The position numbers and the translations under genes were made by a program. Below, piece by piece: positions 3,583 through 64,000 of a stretch of 64,000 bases of DNA; position 1 is the first letter of the stretch; every line of letters starts with the position of its first letter. The notes beneath the pieces were generated by a model. It made no database searches. It saw nothing but the letters and a program-made list of their open reading frames with translations, and had not been told where the DNA came from. Location: the sequence record NC_106597.1; one strand, given 5' to 3'. Origin of the DNA: Escherichia phage BB1.

Positions 3583-6500
3583 TTATCTATTCGCTAGTAG
3601 AGAGTTAACTACTATGGTTAGATCTGCAATTTGCTTTTTAAGATCAGATACTTCTGATTCTAGAGCTGTGATCCTGCTATCAGATTCTCTGCTTACCTGT
3701 ACTAACAACCCGGTAATGGCCCCATAATCTACCGAATAGAATCGTTCCTCTCCAACGAGAGGCTCACCGTTTAGGGTGGCACCTGCGAGATCTGTATATT
3801 TTGTAAATCCACTTACAGCCTCCGGTAGCGCTTCCATCACTTCCTGGGCTATAACTCCCGCGTACGGCATACCGTTTTCTTTAAGGGTATATGTATATCC
3901 TTTCATTTTACGGAGAGATTCTGTAGCATTGGGTATCTCTACTATGTTATCTTTTAGATCCCTATCAGAAGCTTGGTTAAATGCGATTGCTTGAGCAGCC
4001 CCATTTACTTGGAGAACACGAGATCCATCAGTATTTTGTTGCGCATAAAATAAGTATCCATCAGTTAATTTACACTCAATAACAGAAGGTCTTCCAGTAG
4101 TATTACCCCATAATTGAAGTATAGCATCTTTAGCTGCATTTGATGTATTTTCAATTCTAAACTGTCGATTATTTGAACGACGTACAACTATAGCAGTACT
4201 ATCTGCAAAAACTCCACCACCATAATTAGGGGTCCTTATTGAAGTATTACCATCCTCCCCTAAACTTAATGAACTGCCCATCATCTCATTAGCTATAACA
4301 ACAGATTTTCCAGCTCCGGTTTTACCAAAATACCACATTCTAGTATTATTAGCTGTTCTACCTGCTAAATAACCACTTTCAGAAGTATCATCAACACTAG
4401 ATTTTAGGGTTAATGCCTCTCCATTTTTATTTATAAAAAGAGGGACTTTAAAATCAGCATATTGATCCGTAATTATACGATTCCATGCACCTATAGTGCC
4501 AGATTCAATACTTCTCAGATAATATTTATTACCCCTACCGGCTAGTTGAGTAGCATAGTTACCACTAAAACCTATATGTACCCCACCATATACAACATTG
4601 TTTTCAGGACTATTAACTTGACCAGCAATACCATAAAACTTATTGATAGTGTTATGTTGTGTATTCCAGTCTACACCAGTAGAAGATAACATACCTGAAG
4701 GAGCTGAGAAGGTCCCATCCTTATTAAAATTAAAGAATTTATGACTAGCAGAACTAGTCATATCCCTAACAATAATCTGTCCAGCTTCTTCTGTTGCCCT
4801 AAACTCACTTTGTCCTAATATGGTATCAGCACTATTTACTAACTGAGATGTGTATGTATTTTTTGTTACAGCATCGCCTCTAGCAGAAAAACTATTAGCA
4901 CCAACAACACTACCATTAAAAGTAAAAGAAGGTGCAGTAGCAGAAAAGGCGTTACCAGAGTTAAGATTATTAGTTAAAGCAAAATTAGGAGATAATCCCT
5001 GACGGAAAGGATGATTAGAGTAAAAGCCAGAACCGCCACCAGTAAAGTTCAAGAGGTTGCTAACATTACCCTCAGCATTTCCATCACCCGCATCTGTTAC
5101 TCCAAATTTAAATTTAACCCCGTTAGTTCCTAATACATAGTCTTCCGTTGGAACATTTATAACAACCTTTGGGTCTGTCATAATGTTCACAGGAAATGCT
5201 TTATAGTGCACATAAACTGCTATGTGTTGAGCATAGTCCTTGTTACTTCCTTTTATGCATAGAATACCCAACTCATTGGGGTCATACGTTGTGAATACTC
5301 CATATGCTATACTAGGGCTATCGCTCCAGCCACCACAAGTTACGTAGCCAGAAAAAACATTATTATTCATCTCATGGCCGGCCGATCTACCAGGAGTACG
5401 AATAGATATAGGTACTGGCATAACCCCATTACCATTAACACCTCCAGTATAAAATATAACTGGATAGTATTTCCCATCAACAGCACCTGAAGGCGCATTA
5501 ATAGTTTGGTAAGTACCTATAAATCCTGTAGTAGGTATACCTAAATTTTGTTGAGTTACAGTAAGATTCCTAACAGCTATAGTATCCGTATTAATCTCAT
5601 TTGGTACGAATAGTTGACCATTATGTTTAAAATGGAATGTTTTATAAGATGGGCCAGTATCTTCTCCCATAATCTGCAGAGTTGCAGCAGCAGTACCATC
5701 AGAAAGTTTTTCAGGGTATAAGCGCATACGCGCTCTTTGAGTACCATTCACAGCTCTTAAGTAACTATTAATAATACCTCCAGCAGCTGCCGTACTATCA
5801 CTATATCCAGTTAATGATAGACCAGCAAATAATGGTGCATGCTGGGAACCTAGCTCAATAAGCTGTCTACAGTAGCTAGGATCGTAACTATTAAGGATAG
5901 ATCCCCAGGCAGACCATGTTGAGGTACCTGGGTTATAACTACGTTCGTATATCCTATTAGTACTAAAGGTAATGTATATCTGACAACATCCAGCAACCCC
6001 ATTAGCACTATTTTGTAGTACCATTAAGTTTCCCGCTTCTTGAATAGGATAATTACGGGCTATAGTTGCATTAGCAGATAGATTCTGGTAATAGAAACCT
6101 GCAGACTCACCCGTAAGATCATTCAAGTTCTGATCTGTTAAGGTAGAAAATCTACGATACATTACTTCCAGATTTCTACGTGCGTCAGAAGTATTAAGAG
6201 CACCAGTGCCGCCCTGAGCTATTGCGAGAGGTTGCCACCTACTAGTTGTAGGATTAAATGCTCCCCACTGACCACCAGCATCAACCTGTAAGTAACAGCC
6301 ATCCGACTGAATATCTGTTGAACAAACGATGGTTCTTGTATCACTGGAACGTTGGAAGCGGTTTAGCTGTAGATTAGTTCTCGCTTCAGCAGCTGATCTA
6401 CCTCCGGTACCACCCTGTCCTACTGCAAGAGGTATGTATGTCCTATTCTCTATATCATAAGCTCCCCAGAGTTTATTGGAAGTAATAATTATTTTTGCAC

Positions 6501-17818: not shown

Positions 17819-18223
17819 TTACGCTTTTGAGCTACGAAAAGTGTCTAAGTGGAACACTGTCTGGTTGATCCAAGAATCAAACGCGGCGGAGTTCTGCATA
17901 AGCATTACAGCATTATCACGACTAAATGGAACTTCAGTAGCAGGATCAGCATCTGTTTCAATCAGCATCAGTTTTTCAACGTCACCTACAGTCAAACCAG
18001 TCCAACCTTTAATCGCAGCATCAACGAAGGCTTCAATGAACTTATCATCATCCTGTACCTGAATCAAAGTACCGTTAACCCACTCGTCACGCTTAGCAGA
18101 AGTGATAACTCGCTTAGAAGTAGCACGAGACATATAATTAAGCTCTAGCTTAAAGTTAGGCATACCTGGGTATGAAAGGGTGACAGTACGAGTTTCTAGG
18201 GTAATATCTTTTAAGTTAATCAT
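17819..18223 (-). CDS. putative tail assembly protein
   Basis: 134 aa; start overlaps the upstream gene stop. Confidence 0.3.
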   Translation of the reverse strand: MINLKDITLETRTVTLSYPGMPNFKLELNYMSRATSKRVITSAKRDEWVNGTLIQVQDDDKFIEAFVDAAIKGWTGLTVGDVEKLMLIETDADPATEVPFSRDNAVMLMQNSAAFDSWINQTVFHLDTFRSSKA

Positions 18224-19119
18224 TATTTTCTTTCTCCAAAGAAGTTTATTTCTACAGGATCTGAATCAGCAGTTGGTATTACATCATACTCTACCTGATA
18301 CAAATCTGAGAAGTTTAGGCGTTTTGAAATACGTGCTAAAGGGAATGTTATAGAAACATATTTATTTTTAATAATTAGTGGAGTTCTTGTTTCCGGGTCT
18401 AGATTCAAGAACTTATCTCCTACCAATCTCTTAACGTAATAGAAAGCTAGCGTTGCGGAAGCATTCATCTCATTGACATAAGCTCGTTTATTAGTATAAA
18501 CTTTATTTATATCAAATATACTTCTATCTTCTCTCCAAGAACATTGTTGCTGGAAGGACATAGATGCTGAAATTAATGCGGGCAATGGCGCGCTATTAGT
18601 ATACACAGCTGGAGGACTATATGGAAGTACTTCACCTTGTGTAATTGTATATCCATCGCGGAAAGTAGATACTTCAGAGAATTTTCCAGACTCAATACCA
18701 ACATTTAGGATCGGTATACTCTTATCTAAAGAAAAATCAACTGTTGATACATAACAGTTTTCGAAATAAATACAGCTATTATTATGATTAATAATATACA
18801 TATTGAACATAATAGGTTCAATATTGGGAGTATTTCTTGGCAAAAATAAAGAATTTCCCTCACGCGTGAATCCCATCCAATCAAAGAAATTAGATTCAAT
18901 AAGCGTAGTACTGAAATTTATTGCCAATGAAATAGATGAAGGATCTTGAGCATTAATAATAGAGTCTGCATAGTTGGTACGATTATGAATAGTACGTCTA
19001 AGAGTTTTAAACTCTTGAAAAGACGTACTAGCATCATAGTTAGAGAGGGCATCGAAATGATACCCTCTACCATCATACTCAATAACTATTTTAGACTCTC
19101 GCATGAGAGAATAAAACAT
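18223..19119 (-). CDS. tail protein (p140-like)
   Basis: 298 aa, immediately downstream of the tail tube gene. Confidence 0.4.
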   Translation of the reverse strand: MFYSLMRESKIVIEYDGRGYHFDALSNYDASTSFQEFKTLRRTIHNRTNYADSIINAQDPSSISLAINFSTTLIESNFFDWMGFTREGNSLFLPRNTPNIEPIMFNMYIINHNNSCIYFENCYVSTVDFSLDKSIPILNVGIESGKFSEVSTFRDGYTITQGEVLPYSPPAVYTNSAPLPALISASMSFQQQCSWREDRSIFDINKVYTNKRAYVNEMNASATLAFYYVKRLVGDKFLNLDPETRTPLIIKNKYVSITFPLARISKRLNFSDLYQVEYDVIPTADSDPVEINFFGERK

Positions 19120-19123
19120 TTAA

Positions 19124-20518
19124 TTAACCACCTGCTGTTACAGTAATCTGTTTAGTGCCTTTAACTCCAGAACCATCTTTAGCAGTAGCTTCTACAGTTA
19201 CTGCACCAGTTTTACTAACATCTGCTTTTAGTAATCCTGTTGCACTGATAGTAGCTGCATCACCAGCAGTGATAGCCCAAGTAACTTCCTTATTTTCTGC
19301 GGAAGAAGGAGTAACTTCAACACTCATCTGAAGAGTGGCAGAAGTGTTTACTGTAGTAACATTACCCGCAGATTTAACAGTAATTGCAGTTACAGCATCA
19401 GTAGCACCATTACCATTAACAATCAAGTTATTAATAGTTGTTTTGGTATACTTACTAGAGAAGCCTAAGTAACCCTCATCACCTGCATCCAGCTCTGACG
19501 GAATAGCCTTAAACTCTACTGATGTACCAAGTACATCATCAGTCTCAATCGTAGGAATATTAACGTGCGCTTGTTTGGCTACCAGAATAGCTGCAGGACG
19601 TTCATCCTCATACTCGCCACCAAGTACTAGAGCTATTTCGAAGCGGTTAACTACCTTCAGAGTTTTGATAAGATCTTTATACAGTTCCATAGAACCAAGA
19701 GATTTATCATTCAGATAAGCAGTTAACGAACCAGTTAATTCAAAAGCACCAGTAAAGGAACCAATTGGAATAGTAACACGGGACATTACATTAGGTGTTA
19801 GATAAGTAATGTTGTTGTTAATAGTAAAAGTACCACCGGTAATTGGTATGTCGTAAGACTTATTGGTATCCATGTCCTTGATCTTAAGGATCGTTAATTT
19901 GTTCTTGATGTAAGAACCCTGGATAGTCATATAAGTTTCATCATCAATACCTATTTCATCTGGGTCAAATGGTTGCTCATCCAGAGGAATAAGCTGATTA
20001 CCATTACCAGACCAAGTTACACGGCCAATATCTTCAATATCAACGTTAACTTCTGCTTGATTAATCTGACAGGAATCGATATAACTCCATGCTTTATCAG
20101 TCAGAATATAAATGTGTAACATTGCTAACTCGTGATAAGAGTTATCTTTGAAGTTAACCATAAAGTTAGCTTCGTTATTGTGTGCCCCCGTATTACCTTC
20201 TAGGTTAATAGCTTTACCACTAGAAAGTGCATGCCATAACATATAGTCAGGAACAATTTGTTTGTTAGTAGTTTTGTCTTTATATGGCAGGATATAGGTA
20301 GAGAAACTCCACTCAGCTGCGTTTAAAGAGTCGTTAAAACGTTTAGAACCACGAGTTGGACGCGGACCAGCCTCATTAACAGTAATATCTGTTGAGTTAC
20401 TGTCCTGACCCCAAGAAATATCATCCTGAACTAGAATCTCTTGCGTGTTGGTCTTATTATGACCAGTCTTAACCGTAGACACGAAGATTCGAGTATTACG
20501 TAATAGTTGTAAAGACAT
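19124..20518 (-). CDS. major tail tube protein (pb6-like) with C-terminal Ig-like domain
   Basis: 464 aa as in T5 pb6; C-terminal Thr/Val-rich Ig-like (BIG2-type) segment. Confidence 0.75.
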   Translation of the reverse strand: MSLQLLRNTRIFVSTVKTGHNKTNTQEILVQDDISWGQDSNSTDITVNEAGPRPTRGSKRFNDSLNAAEWSFSTYILPYKDKTTNKQIVPDYMLWHALSSGKAINLEGNTGAHNNEANFMVNFKDNSYHELAMLHIYILTDKAWSYIDSCQINQAEVNVDIEDIGRVTWSGNGNQLIPLDEQPFDPDEIGIDDETYMTIQGSYIKNKLTILKIKDMDTNKSYDIPITGGTFTINNNITYLTPNVMSRVTIPIGSFTGAFELTGSLTAYLNDKSLGSMELYKDLIKTLKVVNRFEIALVLGGEYEDERPAAILVAKQAHVNIPTIETDDVLGTSVEFKAIPSELDAGDEGYLGFSSKYTKTTINNLIVNGNGATDAVTAITVKSAGNVTTVNTSATLQMSVEVTPSSAENKEVTWAITAGDAATISATGLLKADVSKTGAVTVEATAKDGSGVKGTKQITVTAGG

Positions 20519-57323: not shown

Positions 57324-57597
57324 AACGACAAGTAAAAGAACTAGAGCTATTAGTACGTTGAGTAGTTATTTCACCATGTTTACTAATAGTAACGGCTGGA
57401 GTAGAGAAGTTTTTATTAGTATATATTTCTACTTTACCATTACGTTCCTTAACATCACGAACTTTACCATATTCAGTAATAATGCCGTTCTGTTGGACTT
57501 TAACATTGCCATTTTTCATAGAAACTTTGGTAGACGCCAGAGAACCGAAACTAACTGCGGAGATCATCAGTGCAATAATAAACTTATTCATCTTCAT
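57292..57597 (-). CDS. secreted small protein
   Basis: ORF 57292..57657; likely start at 57597 giving an MKMNKFIIALMISAVSFGSLAS signal peptide. Confidence 0.35.
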   Translation of the reverse strand: MKMNKFIIALMISAVSFGSLASTKVSMKNGNVKVQQNGIITEYGKVRDVKERNGKVEIYTNKNFSTPAVTISKHGEITTQRTNSSSSFTCRYDCDFEGEDE

Positions 57598-57865
57598 CCT
57601 CCCCACTACAATCACGACATACATCATAATCGTTGAAAGAGCGTTCGTGAGCTTCACACCACCAAGAACAAGAATCGCAGAGGAACATTTCGGTTTTCTC
57701 CAGTGCTTGACCTAAAAGATCATCAGCTTCCTCAGCAGTAATCTTCAATCCGCACACATCTGCCACACGTTCTTTAATTAAACGACCTGCTTCATGGTAA
57801 GACATACAGGTTCCCGCAACATCATGTTCAAGAACATGAATGGCACAGTCTAGGCGATTTTTCAT
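57584..57865 (-). CDS. Cys-rich small protein (93 aa)
   Basis: Paired CxxC-like motifs; directly downstream of a promoter cassette. Confidence 0.4.
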   Translation of the reverse strand: MKNRLDCAIHVLEHDVAGTCMSYHEAGRLIKERVADVCGLKITAEEADDLLGQALEKTEMFLCDSCSWWCEAHERSFNDYDVCRDCSGEDEDE

Positions 57866-57895
57866 TTCAAACCTCTCTCATCAATTTATAAATAT

Positions 57896-57924
57896 ATTAT
57901 AGCAAGAAAAGAGAGGTTTAGCAA
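57896..57924 (-). promoter_or_regulatory. T5-type early sigma70 promoter
   Basis: TTGCTA - 17 bp - TATAAT, leader ATATTTATAAATTGATGAGAGAGGTTTGAA then ATG. Confidence 0.65.
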
Positions 57925-57941
57925 ATGAATTATTTCAGAAT

Positions 57942-58289
57942 TTAGTCATAGCACCACCATAACCCACGCTTACGCATGTCATGATCGCGATTATAATCGT
58001 AATTTTCTGGATCTTTCATCACGCGGTGGAGTTCTTGACGATTCCCTTGACGAACCATTTTATTAGAATGCCACTTAACATTCTTACTAATAGAATTCCA
58101 GTTATAACCATCCTTTTTCTCATTACGAATGGTTGCTTCCTTCATTTCCTGTTCTACATCATCCCAGGATTTAGTATAAATAACACGAATCCAGTAGCCA
58201 TTTTCTTTAAGGAAAGAATATTCTTGAGAGAATTGTTCTTTAGACTTCCACCACTGATCACCAGATTGTTTACGATAAGTACGGCTCAT
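57942..58289 (-). CDS. hypothetical protein (115 aa)
   Basis: Trp/Lys-rich ORF. Confidence 0.4.
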   Translation of the reverse strand: MSRTYRKQSGDQWWKSKEQFSQEYSFLKENGYWIRVIYTKSWDDVEQEMKEATIRNEKKDGYNWNSISKNVKWHSNKMVRQGNRQELHRVMKDPENYDYNRDHDMRKRGLWWCYD

Positions 58290-58360
58290 ATTACCTCCAT
58301 TAAGTCTTTTAAATTAACCTAATGTGGATGAATTTTATTATACATAAATTATTTACCTAT

Positions 58361-58400
58361 ATACAGAAAAACCCCAGACTACTTATTCAATAGCTGGGGT
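58361..58400 (-). terminator. rho-independent terminator
   Basis: CCCCAG ... CTGGGG hairpin followed on the minus strand by GTTTTTCTG. Confidence 0.5.
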
Positions 58401-58410
58401 TTGTTATTAA

Positions 58411-58725
58411 TCACAGATCGGGGCGTTCATCTTCGAAACAGCTTGAGCTGATTCCTTCTCCGAATCCTACAAAGCCATCAAATTCATCATTTGAGATGCC
58501 CATAATCATTGCTTCCATTTTTCTAATCTCCGAAATTTTCATGCCTGCTTTACTATTCTTATAGTATTTGCGAGGGTTCCCACACATCCAACAAGAACAG
58601 ATGCAAGGAGTAGTAGTGATAATACCTAACCGCTTAGGGCTTTCTTCATGTGGGAAGACTGTCCAATACTTCTTGCGGTTGTTCTTCACACGTTGCCGGT
58701 GATGGCGTCTTAATGCTCGATCCAC
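58411..58725 (-). CDS. Cys-rich small protein (104 aa)
   Basis: CICSCWMCG cluster. Confidence 0.35.
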   Translation of the reverse strand: MDRALRRHHRQRVKNNRKKYWTVFPHEESPKRLGIITTTPCICSCWMCGNPRKYYKNSKAGMKISEIRKMEAMIMGISNDEFDGFVGFGEGISSSCFEDERPDL

Positions 58726-58806
58726 ACATTTCTCCTAAAACTTGGGAGATAAACGGAGTTTGCTCGACTACCTTGCGTAGTTCGGAGAAATCGTATCCAA
58801 ACCCCA

Positions 58807-59175
58807 TTACATCGCCTGAGTAAATGTACGACTAATAACGTCGTTCTGTTGTTCACGAGTCAGTGCGTTAAATCGAACAGCGTAGCCAGAGACACGGATG
58901 GTCAACTGAGGGTATTTTTCAGGATGTTTCTGCGCATCCAAAAGCTGATCACGGCTTAACACATTGACATTTAGGTGCTGACCACCTTCGATTTGAGGGG
59001 CGACTTCCACTTTGACTTCACGGAAGGCTTCGGGATCGAATTGTGGTGTGATACCTTCTAGATCTTCAACTAGAACTTTCTGTTTAAGTTCACCGTTGTC
59101 GGAGTATAGCTGAATAATCTGATTTTCATGAACAAGGTTAATTACGCCAGATTTAAGATTTTGATATGCTTTCAT
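58807..59175 (-). CDS. autonomous glycyl radical cofactor (GrcA/YfiD-like)
   Basis: 122 aa; glycyl-radical signature [25 protein letters not shown] and GGQHLNVNV...[10 protein letters not shown]. Confidence 0.8.
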
Positions 59176-59217
59176 TAGATCTCCCCGATGTTAGAATTTG
59201 GCTCAGCTATTTATTCT

Positions 59218-59412
59218 TTATACTTTTCCATAGTATACGGAAACTGTCTTACCAGTTTGGTTCATGACATATGCTACTTCATCTTCTTTTAAAAAGATGG
59301 CTTGGTCTACTCCAACTATAGCCAATCTTTTATTTCTAGGATTAAAGCTTACACTTTTGCCTGTATGAATCTGTTCCCCATTCTTGGCTGACATTATTTT
59401 AATTGTTAACAT
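59218..59412 (-). CDS. hypothetical protein (64 aa)
   Basis: Small ORF before the first tRNA. Confidence 0.35.
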   Translation of the reverse strand: MLTIKIMSAKNGEQIHTGKSVSFNPRNKRLAIVGVDQAIFLKEDEVAYVMNQTGKTVSVYYGKV

Positions 59413-59449
59413 AGCTGCTCCTAAAGTTAGCTATCTCTAGCTCTTTTAA

Positions 59450-59525
59450 TGGTAGTTAGTAGTGGATTTGAACCACTGTAGTCGCTCCGTATGAAGGAGG
59501 TGCATAACCTCTCTGCCAACTAACT
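59450..59525 (-). tRNA. tRNA-Met (anticodon CAT; could be an Ile2 or initiator type)
   Basis: Hand-folded: 7-bp acceptor, T-arm AGTGG-TTCAAAT-CCACT, anticodon loop TTCATAC, encoded CCA. Confidence 0.55.
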
Positions 59526-59678
59526 AGTTAATTCTTTATAGGTTAGATCTAGAAGATCTTTCTTACTGATAAGTCCTTCTCTATATTGGTCAATAAACAT
59601 ATCTATTCTAGAGTTCTCTGAGACTTCTATATCAGAAAGTTCAGCAAATATTTTTGCAAGTTTATCAATATCTTCCAT
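59521..59678 (-). CDS. hypothetical small protein (52 aa)
   Basis: Sub-threshold ORF between two tRNAs. Confidence 0.25.
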
Positions 59679-59692
59679 ACATAACCTTAATT

Positions 59693-59769
59693 TGGTACTC
59701 CGGGAGGGATTTAAACCCCCGATCTCTCGGTTATCAGCCGAGTGCTTTAGATCGCTAAGCTACCGAAGC
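59693..59769 (-). tRNA. tRNA-Ile (anticodon GAT)
   Basis: Hand-folded: acceptor with G-U pairs, anticodon stem CTCGG/CCGAG, loop CTGATAA, T-arm GGGGG-TTTAAAT-CCCTC, encoded CCA. Confidence 0.55.
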
Positions 59770-59770
59770 A

Positions 59771-59998
59771 TTAACATTTTACAGCAGAGCGTTTGCCATT
59801 TCTAGGTGCACCTGGAAGTCGTGCACGTTCTGCCATTCTTCGCTTAATCTTTGAGATATTTTCTAGTGTTTGTTCTTCAGGCTTAATACTTGAAACACTA
59901 CACCACTGATTACCATCCCATGCGGTAATGATCATAACACCATTACTCATGATCTTTTCTGTAAAAGTAATCCTCATTATAGCAACTCGTCTAAGCAA
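59771..59998 (-). CDS. hypothetical protein
   Basis: 75-aa ORF. Confidence 0.3.
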   Translation of the reverse strand: MLRRVAIMRITFTEKIMSNGVMIITAWDGNQWCSVSSIKPEEQTLENISKIKRRMAERARLPGAPRNGKRSAVKC

Positions 59999-60270
59999 GA
60001 GGTATATTTAAGTTTACCATCTTTATCTACTTTGATTTCGACTTCCGCTCGTGGTACTTGACGAACTGCACCATGAATCATCTTATAGTTAATAGACTTA
60101 GACGGTTCATAATCTTTTGGAAAGACTTGCTTAACCGTTACTACCTTGTACCCCTCACGCGGTGTTAGTACAACTACTTGATCACCTTCTTTGATTTTCC
60201 AAGAGCCAGGAAATTCATAGGTATAGCGTTGACCACCAGTTTGGAACACAACAGAAAGATAACGTTTCAT
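59977..60270 (-). CDS. hypothetical protein (97 aa)
   Basis: Directly downstream of a promoter cassette. Confidence 0.4.
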   Translation of the reverse strand: MKRYLSVVFQTGGQRYTYEFPGSWKIKEGDQVVVLTPREGYKVVTVKQVFPKDYEPSKSINYKMIHGAVRQVPRAEVEIKVDKDGKLKYTSCLDELL

Positions 60271-60300
60271 TTGGTTTCCCTCTCATTAATTTATATAAAT

Positions 60301-60329
60301 ATTATAACAATAAATAAGAGAGAAAGCAA
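60301..60329 (-). promoter_or_regulatory. T5-type early sigma70 promoter
   Basis: TTGCTT - 17 bp - TATAAT, leader ...ATAAATTAATGAGAGGG. Confidence 0.65.
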
Positions 60330-60337
60330 ATGAATTT

Positions 60338-60505
60338 TTAATAAAGTTTAGTCACTTCATAAACTATACTACGAGATTCTTTATTACGTTCTATTAAATT
60401 AGCATATGCTTTTTCAGCTTCATTTTTAGTATTAAAGTCTATAACGTGGGAGGTATTCGCTCTATTTGAATAACTATACCAGATAACTACTAATAATTTA
60501 AACAT
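60338..60505 (-). CDS. hypothetical small protein
   Basis: ORF 60338..60532 starts at GTG inside the adjacent tRNA; ATG at 60505 more likely. Confidence 0.3.
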   Translation of the reverse strand: MFKLLVVIWYSYSNRANTSHVIDFNTKNEAEKAYANLIERNKESRSIVYEVTKLY

Positions 60506-60519
60506 AATAGTCCTTAAAT

Positions 60520-60606
60520 TGGTGCTGGGCACAGGATTCGAACCTGCAACGGGATTACTCCTCCTGATTACAAATCAGGTGCATTCAACCATTCTGCCAA
60601 CCCAGC
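60520..60606 (-). tRNA. tRNA, class II-like (long variable arm), anticodon reads TGT; identity uncertain
   Basis: Perfect 7-bp acceptor, T-arm GCAGG-TTCGAAT-CCTGT, encoded CCA, 3-bp D-stem, 16-nt variable region, anticodon stem CCTGA/TCAGG with loop TTTGTAA. Confidence 0.4.
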
Positions 60607-60614
60607 AGAACCCG

Positions 60615-60779
60615 TTATTTCAACGGGATTTCTTTTTCAATAACAGGAGACTTATCAGTCATAACTGTCATTGCCATTTGTTGTAGAAATTCAAAGGTGA
60701 AGGCTACACGCTCTTCACCAATCTCTACTTCTACACGTTTCTTTTGTTTGTCGATCTTGACTTTTAGGTTATCAGCCAT
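60615..60779 (-). CDS. hypothetical small protein (53 aa)
   Basis: Sub-threshold ORF; ATG overlaps the stop of the upstream 83-aa ORF. Confidence 0.25.
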   Translation of the reverse strand: MADNLKVKIDKQKKRVEVEIGEERVAFTFEFLQQMAMTVMTDKSPVIEKEIPLK

Positions 60780-61023
60780 TAGATAGTACAGTACTGGTAG
60801 TTGGCAATACTACAGATGAAGCAACAGTGTTTAAATGCTTTCTCCAGTCTAGGTTAAATTGTTTTCGAAACTCTTCATAAGGTTCTTCTGGATAAAAGCT
60901 AAAACCTCCTTTCTCATCATTCAGGATAACAGAGCCGTCAGTTTGTTCGTATGCTCGGTATGTTTCTCCAATAACAATAACTCGTTTATCGGTACTTTTA
61001 TTACGAAACTCAAAAACGTGCAT
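60772..61023 (-). CDS. hypothetical protein (83 aa)
   Basis: ATG start at 61023. Confidence 0.35.
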   Translation of the reverse strand: MHVFEFRNKSTDKRVIVIGETYRAYEQTDGSVILNDEKGGFSFYPEEPYEEFRKQFNLDWRKHLNTVASSVVLPTTSTVLSNG

Positions 61024-61039
61024 AATGTTTCCTTAAAGT

Positions 61040-61115
61040 TGGAGCGGCTAGAGGGAATCGAACCCTACTCAGCGAGGCTTGGAAGGCCTGCGACACAACC
61101 CGTGTGCTTAACCGC
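61040..61115 (-). tRNA. tRNA-Gly (anticodon TCC; Trp-CCA reading not excluded)
   Basis: Acceptor GCGGTTA/TAGCCGC, T-loop TTCGATT, anticodon loop CTTCCAA, encoded CCA. Confidence 0.45.
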
Positions 61116-61123
61116 TTATTATT

Positions 61124-61199
61124 TGGCTGGAGAAGGAGGAATCGAACCTACCATTAACGGAGTCAAAGGCCGTTGTGCTAACCGTTACACTACTCTCCA
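61124..61199 (-). tRNA. tRNA-Gln (anticodon TTG)
   Basis: Acceptor TGGAGAG/TTCTCCA, anticodon stem ACGGC/TCCGT, loop CTTTGAC, T-loop TTCGATT, encoded CCA. Confidence 0.5.
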
Positions 61200-61205
61200 A
61201 TTATT

Positions 61206-61281
61206 TGGCTGGAGTGCCTGGGATCGAACCAGGAACCTTCGGAGTCAGAGGCCGACGATCTGCCAATTGATCTACACTCCA
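61206..61281 (-). tRNA. tRNA-Gln (anticodon CTG)
   Basis: Acceptor TGGAGTG/CACTCCA, D-arm GATC-AATTGGCA-GATC, anticodon loop CTCTGAC, T-arm CCTGG-TTCGATC-CCAGG, encoded CCA. Confidence 0.5.
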
Positions 61282-61290
61282 AAAATGCTA

Positions 61291-61527
61291 TTAACTAGAC
61301 GCTGTTTCTACCGGCTGAGATACAGCAGGCTGTTCTAACGTATCTGGTACTGATACAGAGAAAAGAGCTTGTAATGCTGCAATATCACGCTCGTAAGTAT
61401 CAATACGAGTAGTAAGAGTATCTACCATCTGTTTATGGTAGGCTAAGTTATTCTGAGATTCATCTCGAAGAGTTTGCAGTTCTGCAAGACGTGTTAACAT
61501 AATTTCACTAATTAAAGCATTACTCAT
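61291..61527 (-). CDS. hypothetical coiled-coil protein (78 aa)
   Basis: ORF between tRNAs. Confidence 0.35.
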   Translation of the reverse strand: MSNALISEIMLTRLAELQTLRDESQNNLAYHKQMVDTLTTRIDTYERDIAALQALFSVSVPDTLEQPAVSQPVETASS

Positions 61528-61717
61528 TTGTTTCTCCTAAGTTTTCCGGTTCTTCTAAACGTTTGCCTTCATGATCTACTCGAATAACTCCGCATCCTTC
61601 GCAAATCACAACTGCACCATAACCTTCTTTGACCTCAGCTTCTGTAATCAAACCAGAAAGATCACCAGTATCTCTGCCCCACATATCAATGGAGCATTGT
61701 TTGCAGAAATCAGCCAT
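61520..61717 (-). CDS. zinc-ribbon-like small protein (65 aa)
   Basis: CKQC ... CEGCG Cys pairs. Confidence 0.35.
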   Translation of the reverse strand: MADFCKQCSIDMWGRDTGDLSGLITEAEVKEGYGAVVICEGCGVIRVDHEGKRLEEPENLGETNE

Positions 61718-61742
61718 ATTTTATTTCCTATTTAAGTTAATT

Positions 61743-61819
61743 TGGGGTGGCTAGTGGAATTCGAATCCACATAGGCCTGATTCACAATCAGGATCATTAA
61801 CCAGTTATGATATAGCCAC
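61743..61819 (-). tRNA. tRNA-His (anticodon GTG)
   Basis: Acceptor GTGGCTA/TAGCCAC, D-stem TCAT/ATGA, anticodon stem CCTGA/TCAGG with loop TTGTGAA, T-arm GTGGA-TTCGAAT-TCCAC, encoded CCA. Confidence 0.6.
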
Positions 61820-62187
61820 AATTGAAAACTCGCAGGGTTAGCGAAACCATCCTCAATTAGCATGTTCTAGAATACTAATCAAGTTATCTCCTATTGCACG
61901 CAGCTCAAGACGAGTACGAATTTTCAATTGTGGCGGCTCTCAGAAACTCTTCTCCTCTAGCCTTAGCAGCTTACTCCCGAACGCATGTCGGGTAAGTCTT
62001 ACTAAGAACATCAAGTAGCACCGTTACACTTTGAGCCATAGATATATCAAGAAGCAGAAGGACTTGAACCTTCATGAGATAGACCATTTATCTCAGCCGC
62101 TTTATGAGGTATGTTGCAGGGAGTGGATGTTCCCTATAAACCTTTTAGGCAGCCCCGTCTACCGATTCCGGCATACTTCAAGAATTT

Positions 62188-62361
62188 TTATAAACCAGCA
62201 GAAGCCTCATTCAAAGCATCAACAATAGCTTCACGTTGGGTCATTCCATACCCGGTGGAATCTAGGTGGGGCAAATAAGCCATCCATCCCTTATCTGTTT
62301 CATGAAGACATGCTTTAAATTTTTTACCATCCTTCATTGTTACAGTAACTGTTTTGCTCAT
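62188..62361 (-). CDS. hypothetical small protein (57 aa)
   Basis: Sub-threshold ORF with SD AAGGAAA; MSKTVTVTMKDGKKF... Confidence 0.3.
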   Translation of the reverse strand: MSKTVTVTMKDGKKFKACLHETDKGWMAYLPHLDSTGYGMTQREAIVDALNEASAGL

Positions 62362-62381
62362 AAGATTTCCTTATAGTTAAT

Positions 62382-62471
62382 TGGCAGAAGATAATGGAGT
62401 CGAACCATCACCGTATCACTACAGCGGGCTGGTTTTCAAGACCAGTTACGTACCACTACGTCCTATCTTCT
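62382..62471 (-). tRNA. tRNA-Ser (anticodon TGA)
   Basis: 90 nt with long variable arm; anticodon arm CTGGT-CTTGAAA-ACCAG; T-arm GATGG-TTCGACT-CCATT; perfect 7-bp acceptor; encoded CCA. Confidence 0.65.
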
Positions 62472-62477
62472 ATTATT

Positions 62478-62568
62478 TGGCGGAAGAGGAGAGATTTGAA
62501 CTCTCAAGCCGTTTTACCAGTCAGCCACTTTCCAAGCGGTTTTCGTCGCCAATTCGATTTGCTCTTCC
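62478..62568 (-). tRNA. tRNA-Ser (anticodon GGA)
   Basis: 91 nt with long variable arm; anticodon loop TTGGAAA; T-arm GAGAG-TTCAAAT-CTCTC; perfect acceptor GGAAGAG/CTCTTCC; encoded CCA. Confidence 0.6.
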
Positions 62569-62680
62569 AATAATAAGATGATGCCTCTATCACACCAGGC
62601 AGTTACGCCCCGCTGGGATTCGAACCCATTAAAACAGCTCAACCGAGATAGTAGGTTTAATTTACTCTGACCATCAAATT

Positions 62681-62757
62681 TGGTGCGTGACAAGGGATTC
62701 GAACCCTCAAAACCCGACTTCTAAGGACGGTATGTATGCCAATTCCATCAATCACGC
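62681..62757 (-). tRNA. tRNA with anticodon reading TAG (Leu-type anticodon in a short-variable-arm scaffold); identity uncertain
   Basis: Acceptor GCGTGAT/GTCACGC, T-arm GAGGG-TTCGAAT-CCCTT, encoded CCA, anticodon stem CCGTC/GTCGG (one mismatch) with loop CTTAGAA. Confidence 0.4.
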
Positions 62758-62762
62758 ATATT

Positions 62763-62841
62763 TGGTGGAGAATAACGGAATCGAACCGTTCTGATGTCCT
62801 CGGTGCAAGCGAGGTGTCCACTCCATGCAGACCCATTCCCC
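62763..62841 (-). tRNA. tRNA-Ala (anticodon TGC)
   Basis: Acceptor GGGGAAT/ATTCTCC with the G3-U70 pair diagnostic of tRNA-Ala; anticodon stem CCTCG/CGAGG, loop CTTGCAC; T-arm AACGG-TTCGATT-CCGTT; encoded CCA. Confidence 0.6.
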
Positions 62842-63079
62842 AAATTCTTTAGTTTACTAAGGCTATTAGCTCGGCGTAACTACAGCACCTTCGCTTCGAG
62901 CGGAAGGAACCGCGTCATCTCGCAAACCCGATACACTATTCAGTTGCCGCTGAATCTAGTGGACTAATCTAGAACTTCTCCCGAATCGTAGGGATCGTGC
63001 TTTTTGGCAGCCAGTCCTAGGTCGAGCTAATACCTTAGTGAACTATGATGAGGATTTCTCCTCATCAATTTATATAAAT

Positions 63080-63108
63080 ATTATAACAAGAAATTAAGCA
63101 TCAAGCAA
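63080..63108 (-). promoter_or_regulatory. T5-type early sigma70 promoter with no downstream ORF (drives a non-coding leader and the tRNA cluster)
   Basis: TTGCTT - 17 bp - TATAAT; leader ATTTATATAAATTGATGAGGAGAAATCCTCATC forms a hairpin over the SD-like GAGGAG; no ATG follows. Confidence 0.6.
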
Positions 63109-63126
63109 CTGCATTTTTCTTGAAAT

Positions 63127-63205
63127 TGGTAGATCGCCTGGGACTCGAACCCAGAACCTTCCGATTAAAAGTCGGATGCTACTAAACCTATTGAGCTAGC
63201 GATCT
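63127..63205 (-). tRNA. tRNA-Lys (anticodon TTT)
   Basis: Perfect acceptor AGATCGC/GCGATCT, anticodon stem TCCGA/TCGGA with loop CTTTTAA, T-arm CTGGG-TTCGAGT-CCCAG, encoded CCA. Confidence 0.55.
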
Positions 63206-63206
63206 A

Positions 63207-63374
63207 TTAGTAACCATTATATACTTCTTTAATAGAGTGAACTTTCAAGTAAGGGTGATTAATCCCAAACTTCGCCATTACTTCTTTCTCATCTTTTCCA
63301 TAATGAGCAAGTAAGGATTTTGAGGTATTCTTACCTAAACGTTTGTCACTTACTACTAATCGAAATACTTTCAT
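63207..63374 (-). CDS. hypothetical small protein (55 aa)
   Basis: Sub-threshold ORF with SD AGAGGA 6 nt upstream, between two tRNAs. Confidence 0.3.
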   Translation of the reverse strand: MKVFRLVVSDKRLGKNTSKSLLAHYGKDEKEVMAKFGINHPYLKVHSIKEVYNGY

Positions 63375-63394
63375 TTCGAAATCCTCTATTAAAA

Positions 63395-63472
63395 TGGAAG
63401 CGGGTGCAGGAATCGAACCTACCTCTTTCTAGCTTATGAGACTAGCGATCTCTACCAGAGATCTAACCCGCA
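63395..63472 (-). tRNA. tRNA-Met (anticodon CAT), second copy
   Basis: Anticodon loop CTCATAA, T-arm GTAGG-TTCGATT-CCTGC, encoded CCA; 1:72 position unpaired. Confidence 0.5.
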
Positions 63473-63478
63473 ATTGTT

Positions 63479-63554
63479 TGGTCAGTGCGGCAGGACTCGA
63501 ACCTGCGACCCGAAGCATCCAAGGCTCCCACGCTACCAACTGCGCTACGCACTG
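63479..63554 (-). tRNA. tRNA-Pro (anticodon TGG)
   Basis: Perfect acceptor CAGTGCG/CGCACTG, D-arm GCGC-AGTTGGTA-GCGT, anticodon loop CTTGGAT, T-arm GCAGG-TTCGAGT-CCTGC, encoded CCA. Confidence 0.6.
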
Positions 63555-63563
63555 TTAATTCTT

Positions 63564-63761
63564 TTATTGTGGAGGAATATTAATAATTCGTCCGTCTACA
63601 CAATAAACGGTACTAGGAATTGTACTATATATGTAGAAATTCTTTATATTACTCTCTCCGCCACAGAAATTTTTAGCAAATTCATACTCTTTATTAATGG
63701 TTGAGTCAAGTTTAAAACAACCAGTAAGTAGGAATACAGACAGCAGTAAAACTTTTTTCAT
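63564..63761 (-). CDS. small lipoprotein (65 aa)
   Basis: Signal peptide with lipobox LTGC; directly downstream of a promoter cassette. Confidence 0.4.
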   Translation of the reverse strand: MKKVLLLSVFLLTGCFKLDSTINKEYEFAKNFCGGESNIKNFYIYSTIPSTVYCVDGRIINIPPQ

Positions 63762-63793
63762 TTTGCTTTCCTTCTCAACACTTTATAAGGTAT

Positions 63794-63822
63794 ATTATAC
63801 CGAGAATTAAGCGAAATAGCAA
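63794..63822 (-). promoter_or_regulatory. T5-type early sigma70 promoter
   Basis: TTGCTA - 17 bp - TATAAT, leader ...AAGTGTTGAGAAGGAAAGCAAA then ATG. Confidence 0.6.
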
Positions 63823-63971
63823 ATGAATTTTTAATAAATTTACTTATTGTGTAGGCCACCTGGAGGCTACCAACCCCACGGCTGACAAAGAAGTTTGCGA
63901 GACTTCTCTTAACTGCCAGAATAGACCCGCCGATCTATCGGAACCTACTCAATAAGTAAACTTTATAGTAT

Positions 63972-64000
63972 CATTCTAGACAGGACTCGAACCTGCTATC
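63972..64000 (-). tRNA. partial tRNA (3' half only; 5' part beyond window end)
   Basis: T-arm ACAGGACTCGAACCTGC nearly identical to that of the tRNA-Pro gene, followed by a 7-nt acceptor strand; no encoded CCA. Confidence 0.3.

Follow-up and report, generated by a model that had tools for sequence, protein, structure and literature searches.

A GrcA/YfiD-type glycyl radical protein predicted in T5-like phages as a probable spare part for host pyruvate formate-lyase

The closest described relatives of the protein considered here are GrcA (YfiD) of E. coli and the phage T4 protein Y06I, which we take to be the product of gene vs.6. According to a passage of PMC8683613 that cites Wagner et al. 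2001, from Knappe's group, both proteins are radicalised by the activase of pyruvate formate-lyase (PFL-AE) and restore oxygen-cleaved pyruvate formate-lyase (PFL) in vitro. The same paper, from Drennan's group, describes the C-terminus of YfiD as a copy of the PFL radical domain and reports that YfiD is activated only when cleaved PFL is present; free YfiD is a poor substrate of PFL-AE, and binding and activation are separable. Furthermore, residues 1-60 of YfiD promote both the binding to cleaved PFL (cPFL) and the activation, and they are dispensable for catalysis (PMC8683613). In vivo, work from Sawers' group found that GrcA rescues a PflB-G734A strain, with the radical passing from G102 of GrcA to C419 of PflB (PMC12338860). 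A first-pass annotation of the DNA analysed here stated that GrcA can rescue oxygen-damaged PFL, a statement that agrees with the restoration in vitro (in the passage mentioned of PMC8683613) and with the rescue of PflB-G734A in vivo (PMC12338860). Phage-encoded spare parts are thus a class described as early as 2001. The gene discussed below already bears a glycyl-radical-domain annotation in the T5 RefSeq record and is annotated in many T5-like genomes.

The window analysed is a stretch of 64,000 nt from Escherichia phage BB1 (NC_106597.1), and the features in and around the grcA-like gene are collected in Table 1. Sequence comparison confirmed that the window belongs to a T5-like phage (Tequintavirus): the 2.5 kb surrounding the gene are 97.5% identical to Tequintavirus genomes (T5_ev212, SUT_E1520 and EC148), in keeping with the earlier description of the gene as phage-encoded, and this region is matched in 445 phage records. 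The gene shares 90.5% nucleotide identity with its T5 ortholog T5.056, which RefSeq labels "putative acetyltransferase-related protein" on the basis of InterPro IPR001150. The predicted product, of about 14 kDa, stands alone, with no fused catalytic glycyl radical enzyme barrel. The stop codon of the gene overlaps the ATG of the following small ORF (TAATG), which is typical of the usual tight packing of phage genes; the neighbouring small ORFs are unrelated to the grcA-like gene, which has its own ribosome-binding site and stop codon.

Table 1. Features of the grcA-like locus, numbered from the first nucleotide of the window
Feature	Position	Strand	Basis
grcA-like CDS, T5.056 ortholog	58807..59175	-	intact ATG-started ORF, 122 aa plus stop
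C-terminal glycyl radical domain, codons 61-122	58810..58995	-	alignments to 6owr, 1cm5 and 1h16 (phmmer)
RVSGYAVRF glycyl-radical signature, codons 94-102	58870..58896	-	motif position; alignment with PflB and GrcA
Phage-type N-terminal half, codons 1-60	58996..59175	-	resembles the T4-type vs.6 N-terminus; weakly resembles bacterial GrcA
Shine-Dalgarno GGGGAG, 5 nt 5' of the grcA-like ATG	59181..59186	-	direct reading of the sequence
T5 early promoter P11 homolog	60275..60341	-	T5 RefSeq annotation via blastn, 97% over 67 nt
T5 rho-independent terminator homolog, 3' of the T5.055 homolog	58367..58399	-	blastn, 100% over 33 nt
T5.055 homolog, 104-aa ORF	58411..58725	-	89.5% nt identity to T5.055
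53-aa ORF beginning on the grcA-like stop (TAATG)	58646-58807	-	annotated in T5_ev212
64-aa ORF between tRNA-Met and the grcA-like gene	59218-59412	-	annotated in T5_ev212

In family and sequence searches, the similarity of the predicted protein to the radical domain of GrcA and PflB is far above chance. The Pfam model PF01228 (Gly_radical) scored 66.4 bits (E 3.7e-18) against a cut-off of 22.2, and phmmer aligned residues 46-121 with the E. coli GrcA/YfiD structure 6owr (E 1.4e-30) and matched the protein to the last 62 residues of PflB (698-759; E 5e-27). Over its full length, residues 1-122, the protein aligned with positions 1-121 of the 121-position profile of PHROG 1209 (E 8e-48). With the GrcA equivalog model of NCBIfam, TIGR04365, the score was 121 bits, short of the cut-off of 170, and only residues 50-122 were aligned, and the GrcA2 and GrcA3 models of the same collection were likewise below cut-off. 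The TIGR04365 shortfall arises because the N-terminal half is phage-type and lies outside the bacterial equivalog models; the protein is therefore classed here among phage GrcA-like spare-part proteins and kept apart from the GrcA equivalogs. Judged from its sequence, it is an autonomous glycyl radical protein of the GrcA/YfiD type and a member of the vs.6/T5.056 family (PHROG 1209).

The RVSGYAVRF signature singled out in the first-pass annotation spans residues 94-102 and contains the radical glycine, G97 (codon GGC, 58885-58887), the counterpart in the alignment of G734 in PflB and G102 in GrcA. The overall GrcA/YfiD architecture proposed at the same time was also recovered, with an N-terminal part of about 60 residues followed by a C-terminal radical domain of about 60 residues. 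The AF2 model, built from a 50-sequence alignment with a mean pLDDT of 72.5, agrees with this division, its C-terminal half matching both the YfiD NMR structure 6owr (Foldseek E 4e-6, TM 0.75 target-normalised) and the C-terminus of PFL (2pfl). The reading of the protein as a GrcA-like cofactor is supported on grounds of homology, within a class that was already known.

An identity as formate C-acetyltransferase was considered and rejected: a barrel of about 750 aa with its Cys-Cys pair is absent from this protein of 122 aa, and TIGR01255 (formate C-acetyltransferase), whose cut-off is 994 bits, scored 85.9, over profile positions 683-744 only. PflB and TdcE share their radical domain with the last 62 residues of the window protein (49/62 and 51/62 identical, respectively), but the latter has neither the catalytic barrel of about 700 residues nor C418/C419, and therefore cannot itself be a formate-lyase. 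The labels given to orthologs in GenBank vary, and include "autonomous glycyl radical cofactor GrcA", "pyruvate formate-lyase", "2-ketobutyrate formate-lyase", "acetyltransferase-like protein", "ribonucleotide reductase subunit" and "hypothetical protein". Those that name a pyruvate or 2-ketobutyrate formate-lyase, an acetyltransferase or a ribonucleotide reductase subunit are over-annotations. In practical terms, the analysis serves to correct the labels "pyruvate formate-lyase", "acetyltransferase-related" and "ribonucleotide reductase subunit"; regarding mechanism, nothing new has been learned.

A different function considered for the protein is the replacement of a damaged part in NrdD, the anaerobic ribonucleotide reductase of the phage itself, by which dNTP supply, and not fermentation, would be secured. 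NrdD is a glycyl radical enzyme that is cleaved by oxygen, and T5.099 of T5 is an NrdD-like class III reductase whose C-terminus bears the radical motif RRVCGYLG. Whether there are spare parts for glycyl radical enzymes beyond PFL is an open matter according to a review (PMC13450708). This role is nonetheless very improbable here, as the best blastp match between T5 NrdD and the window protein has an E value of 5.2 and falls away from the radical site, while the window protein is about 80% identical to the tails of PflB and TdcE and carries the motif RVSGYAV, not RRVCGYLG. The NCBIfam matches of the window protein all fall in PFL-clade families, and NrdD is absent among them. In the T5 stretch inspected, NrdD occupies 17962-19686 and has a Zn-ribbon in addition to the RRVCGYLG motif.

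The radical domain is the most conserved part of the family. Its last 62 residues are identical to those of GrcA at 48 positions, of PflB at 49, of TdcE at 51 and of vs.6 from the T4-like phage RB14 at 49, so that the identity to the tails of the three E. coli proteins amounts to 77-82%. Across 50 phage and bacterial homologs, 39 alignment columns are invariant, every one of them within residues 63-119, and the window protein keeps all 39, including EGGxHLNxNVL and the whole 16-residue radical loop. In YfiD, EGGxHLNxNVL is the strand that duplicates β10 of PFL.

Homologs named vs.6 are carried by T4-like phages, with about 52% amino acid identity over the full length. Compared through the RB14 ortholog, the T4-type and T5-type proteins are both phage-encoded, about 120 aa long and members of PHROG 1209; both start with MKAYQ, and their RVSGYAVRF loops are identical. 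They differ in lineage, the T4-type belonging to myoviruses (Straboviridae) and the T5-type to siphoviruses (Demerecviridae), and in genomic context, as the T5-type gene adjoins the tRNA cluster whereas the T4-type gene lies in the vs-e region. A further difference is that T4 Y06I is a biochemically validated spare part for PFL, whereas the T5-type protein is known here from its sequence. With E. coli GrcA, the window protein has in common the standalone size of about 14 kDa, the radical domain (48/62), the fold match and the β10-duplicating strand. In contrast, its N-terminal 60 aa are barely similar to those of GrcA, which are disordered by NMR whereas AF2 predicts β strands in the T5-type protein; moreover, the window protein is phage-encoded, in a putative early phage transcription unit.

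At the DNA level, the match of the gene to the E. coli genome is confined to the 3' half (nt 184-369), the best being the 3' end of pflB at 77-78%. An attempt to assign the radical domain to one host donor (grcA, pflB or tdcE) gave no preference, the three being equally close to it (48-51 of 62 aa and 131-141 of 186 nt identical). Because it is equidistant from GrcA, PflB, TdcE and vs.6, no donor can be named. The C-terminal half of the gene has a GC content of 0.45, between that of the host 3' ends (0.48-0.50) and that of the window (0.385), and this partial shift toward the phage value indicates a long residence in the phage.

The T4-type gene differs in that the C-terminal half of vs.6 is almost that of E. 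coli grcA (60/62 aa), whereas the T5-type is equidistant. In RB14, vs.6 occupies 4001-4363 of the extracted stretch, and grcA of MG1655 occupies 4067-4450 of its own; nt 179-363 of the former gene are 97.8% identical, over 185 nt, to nt 200-384 of the latter. This similarity breaks off precisely at the stop codon and coincides with a jump in GC from 0.33 to 0.48. In the 5' half, which is phage-type, no DNA similarity to grcA was found. RB14 vs.6 is thus a sharp chimera, and the pattern indicates a very recent exchange of the radical-domain half between T-even phages and their host. No exchange of this kind is seen in the T5-type domain, which is older and ameliorated.

Since host DNA is resembled in the 3' half only, with pflB as the best match, and since the 3' half of RB14 vs.6 provides a precedent for phage mosaicism, the gene might be regarded as a non-functional passenger, that is, a fragment of host pflB or grcA acquired via illegitimate recombination. 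This is hardly credible, however, for an intact ORF with its own ribosome-binding site whose GC content is partly phage-like, a sign of long residence, and which is retained under selection. From 30 T5-like IMG/VR orthologous loci plus the window, comprising 29 distinct alleles with nucleotide divergence of up to 14%, the pooled Nei-Gojobori dN/dS was 0.069 for the whole gene, 0.11 for the N-terminal 60 codons and 0.017 for the radical domain. The gene is under strong purifying selection.

A tblastn search found a copy at 80% identity or more in 434 phage records; with the window's own version of pb8, the major head protein of T5, 440 records were found at this level. These are separate searches and the ratio is approximate; it makes the grcA-like gene essentially a core gene of T5-like phages, present in about 99% of genomes. 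Overall, a homolog is present in 1,583 of the 50,697 phage records. Besides the T4-like phages, jumbo phages that infect Klebsiella, Salmonella, Yersinia and Vibrio are among them, so that several unrelated phage lineages have the gene. Ranked by frequency, the top ten first words in the names of the organisms include Escherichia, Salmonella, Klebsiella, Shigella, Enterobacter, Aeromonas, Yersinia and Citrobacter. The hosts so named are facultative anaerobes with a pflB gene. Selection, ubiquity and partial GC amelioration largely refute the notion of a dead host fragment. The retention of the gene, under strong purifying selection, in about 99% of T5-like genomes, together with the homologs in T4-like and jumbo phages, suggests a real fitness role in the oxygen-fluctuating habitats of enteric bacteria.

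The N-terminal half is where the protein departs from its bacterial counterpart. In global alignments, its 60 aa resembled the N-terminus of RB14 vs.6 (z 5.9, 0/500 shuffles), and the resemblance to E. coli GrcA was marginal (z 3.0, 2/500 shuffles). The corresponding comparison of vs.6 with GrcA gave z 6.1, and vs.6 therefore bridges the T5-type protein and GrcA. Four β strands are predicted by AF2 in this half, with pLDDT of about 80, and a search of the PDB with the predicted fold gave no significant match. The N-terminus of YfiD is disordered by NMR (PMC8683613), and in view of this the folded N-terminal half of the model is to be taken as a lead and not as a finding. A divergent N-terminus that is predicted to be folded could mean that recognition or regulation by the window protein differs from that by YfiD.

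Two readings build on this half. In one of them, the protein would act as a decoy or modulator that binds PflA or PflB, sequestering the activase or shifting the flux of formate and acetyl-CoA without restoring activity. An N-terminal half that is unlike bacterial GrcA and predicted to be folded would fit this role, as would the separability of binding from activation, free YfiD being a poor substrate of PFL-AE (PMC8683613). It is quite unlikely, given that a decoy would need only part of what is conserved, whereas all the invariant residues of the radical loop and of the PFL-docking strand are kept, with the dN/dS of 0.017 in this domain, and given that T4 Y06I restores PFL activity in vitro, as recounted in the same passage of PMC8683613 as above. 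In the other reading, which is unlikely, the N-terminal half would alter the engagement with the target, for example by allowing activation by PflA without prior cleavage of PflB, bypassing the "safety lever" of YfiD, or by serving TdcE too. The positive points in its favour are two, the divergence of the N-terminal half and the purifying selection on it. If it were true, the phage would actively switch on or retune the formate-lyase flux of infected cells, which goes beyond the repair of damage.

Regarding expression, the gene probably belongs to an early minus-strand unit that would comprise P11, the T5.058 homolog, tRNA-Ile, tRNA-Met, the 64-aa ORF, the grcA-like gene, the T5.055 homolog and the terminator. 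The boundaries of this putative unit, its start at P11 and its end at the terminator after T5.055, are those of the T5 annotation, from which the promoter function of P11 is also borrowed. In a scan of the surroundings of the gene, sigma-70 promoter and terminator consensus sequences were no more frequent than in the shuffled background, and an Rfam scan of 57500-64000 returned tRNAs only, with no RNA family overlapping the grcA-like gene. The tRNA genes upstream of the gene, at 59450-63554 on the minus strand, number 12 according to ARAGORN and 10 according to Rfam.

The window protein is likely to be a spare part for host PflB, and probably also for TdcE. Its identity, architecture, conservation, selection and distribution were computed here, and the activation by PflA and the rescue of PFL are taken from the literature on its homologs. 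By analogy with YfiD/GrcA and T4 Y06I, we infer the following steps, as well as the benefit to the phage. Under micro-oxic conditions, oxygen would cleave active PflB at the radical glycine G734, leaving the 82-kDa core intact and the radical lost. The phage protein, expressed at an early stage of infection as part of a transcription unit shared with phage tRNAs, would then bind the cleaved PflB, its N-terminal half aiding recognition, and the host activase PflA would put a radical on G97. The C-terminal domain of the phage protein would fill the site that the PflB tail has vacated, and hand the radical to C419 of PflB. TdcE, a near-identical 2-ketobutyrate formate-lyase, is the probable second target. 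The phage would benefit from a continued fermentative output of acetyl-CoA, ATP and formate, in a host that would be unable to replace PflB or GrcA once T5 shuts off host gene expression.

This scheme calls on an activase, and the phage appears, from its sequence, to rely on host PflA. A search for a phage-encoded activase, in which every stop-to-stop segment of the window with a length of 80 aa or more was scanned for CxxxCxxC, returned as the one match the T5.055 homolog, for which Pfam gave no match. No radical-SAM protein is annotated in the T5 stretches inspected, and T5.100, beside nrdD, had no radical-SAM match; an NrdG-like activase is likewise not annotated in the T5 stretch inspected around nrdD. 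Both phage glycyl-radical proteins, the grcA-like one and NrdD, seem to depend on host activases.

As a spare part for PflB, the protein would represent a minimal metabolic "repair kit", in which a phage protein of 14 kDa revives a host enzyme of 170 kDa. Revival would be cheaper than making the enzyme anew, and would still be feasible after host transcription has been shut off. A literature search found no published work on the T5-type protein, and no report of a phenotype in a phage for any of the family members, T4 vs.6 included.

Some further observations concern the neighbourhood of the gene. The tRNA cluster is of the T5 type, its tRNA genes being interleaved with small ORFs. T5_ev212 lists a tRNA-Gly ahead of two tRNA-Gln, plus a second tRNA-Ser, and ARAGORN and Rfam gave neither in the window; the discrepancy may be genuine or may stem from missed detection. 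In the T5 RefSeq record, tRNA-Met is separated from T5.056, 3' of it, by just 13 nt, an interval with no annotated CDS. For the 64-aa ORF that occupies this interval in the window, Pfam gave a sub-threshold thymidine kinase fragment alone (E 0.039). On the other side of the gene, the 53-aa ORF overlaps the 104-aa T5.055 homolog; the former is the one annotated in T5_ev212, and T5 RefSeq annotates T5.055. The 104-aa T5.055 homolog is Cys-rich (TTPCICSCWMCGNPRKY), and Pfam gave no match for it.

Two protein clusters met in the searches differ from the general layout of the family. Cluster P0033, from Citrobacter phage YZU-L1, is a 67-aa version annotated from an internal Met, consisting of the radical domain alone. 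Cluster P0107, with 900 members of 127 aa from Logan assemblies, combines an N-terminus of the E. coli GrcA type with last residues (about 20) that are those of the PflB tail (…SLTKEQQQDVITRTFTQSM), and may be either a natural gene-conversion variant of grcA and pflB or an assembly chimera. Since P0107 carries this PflB-like tail, the GrcA reference sequence was taken from MG1655.
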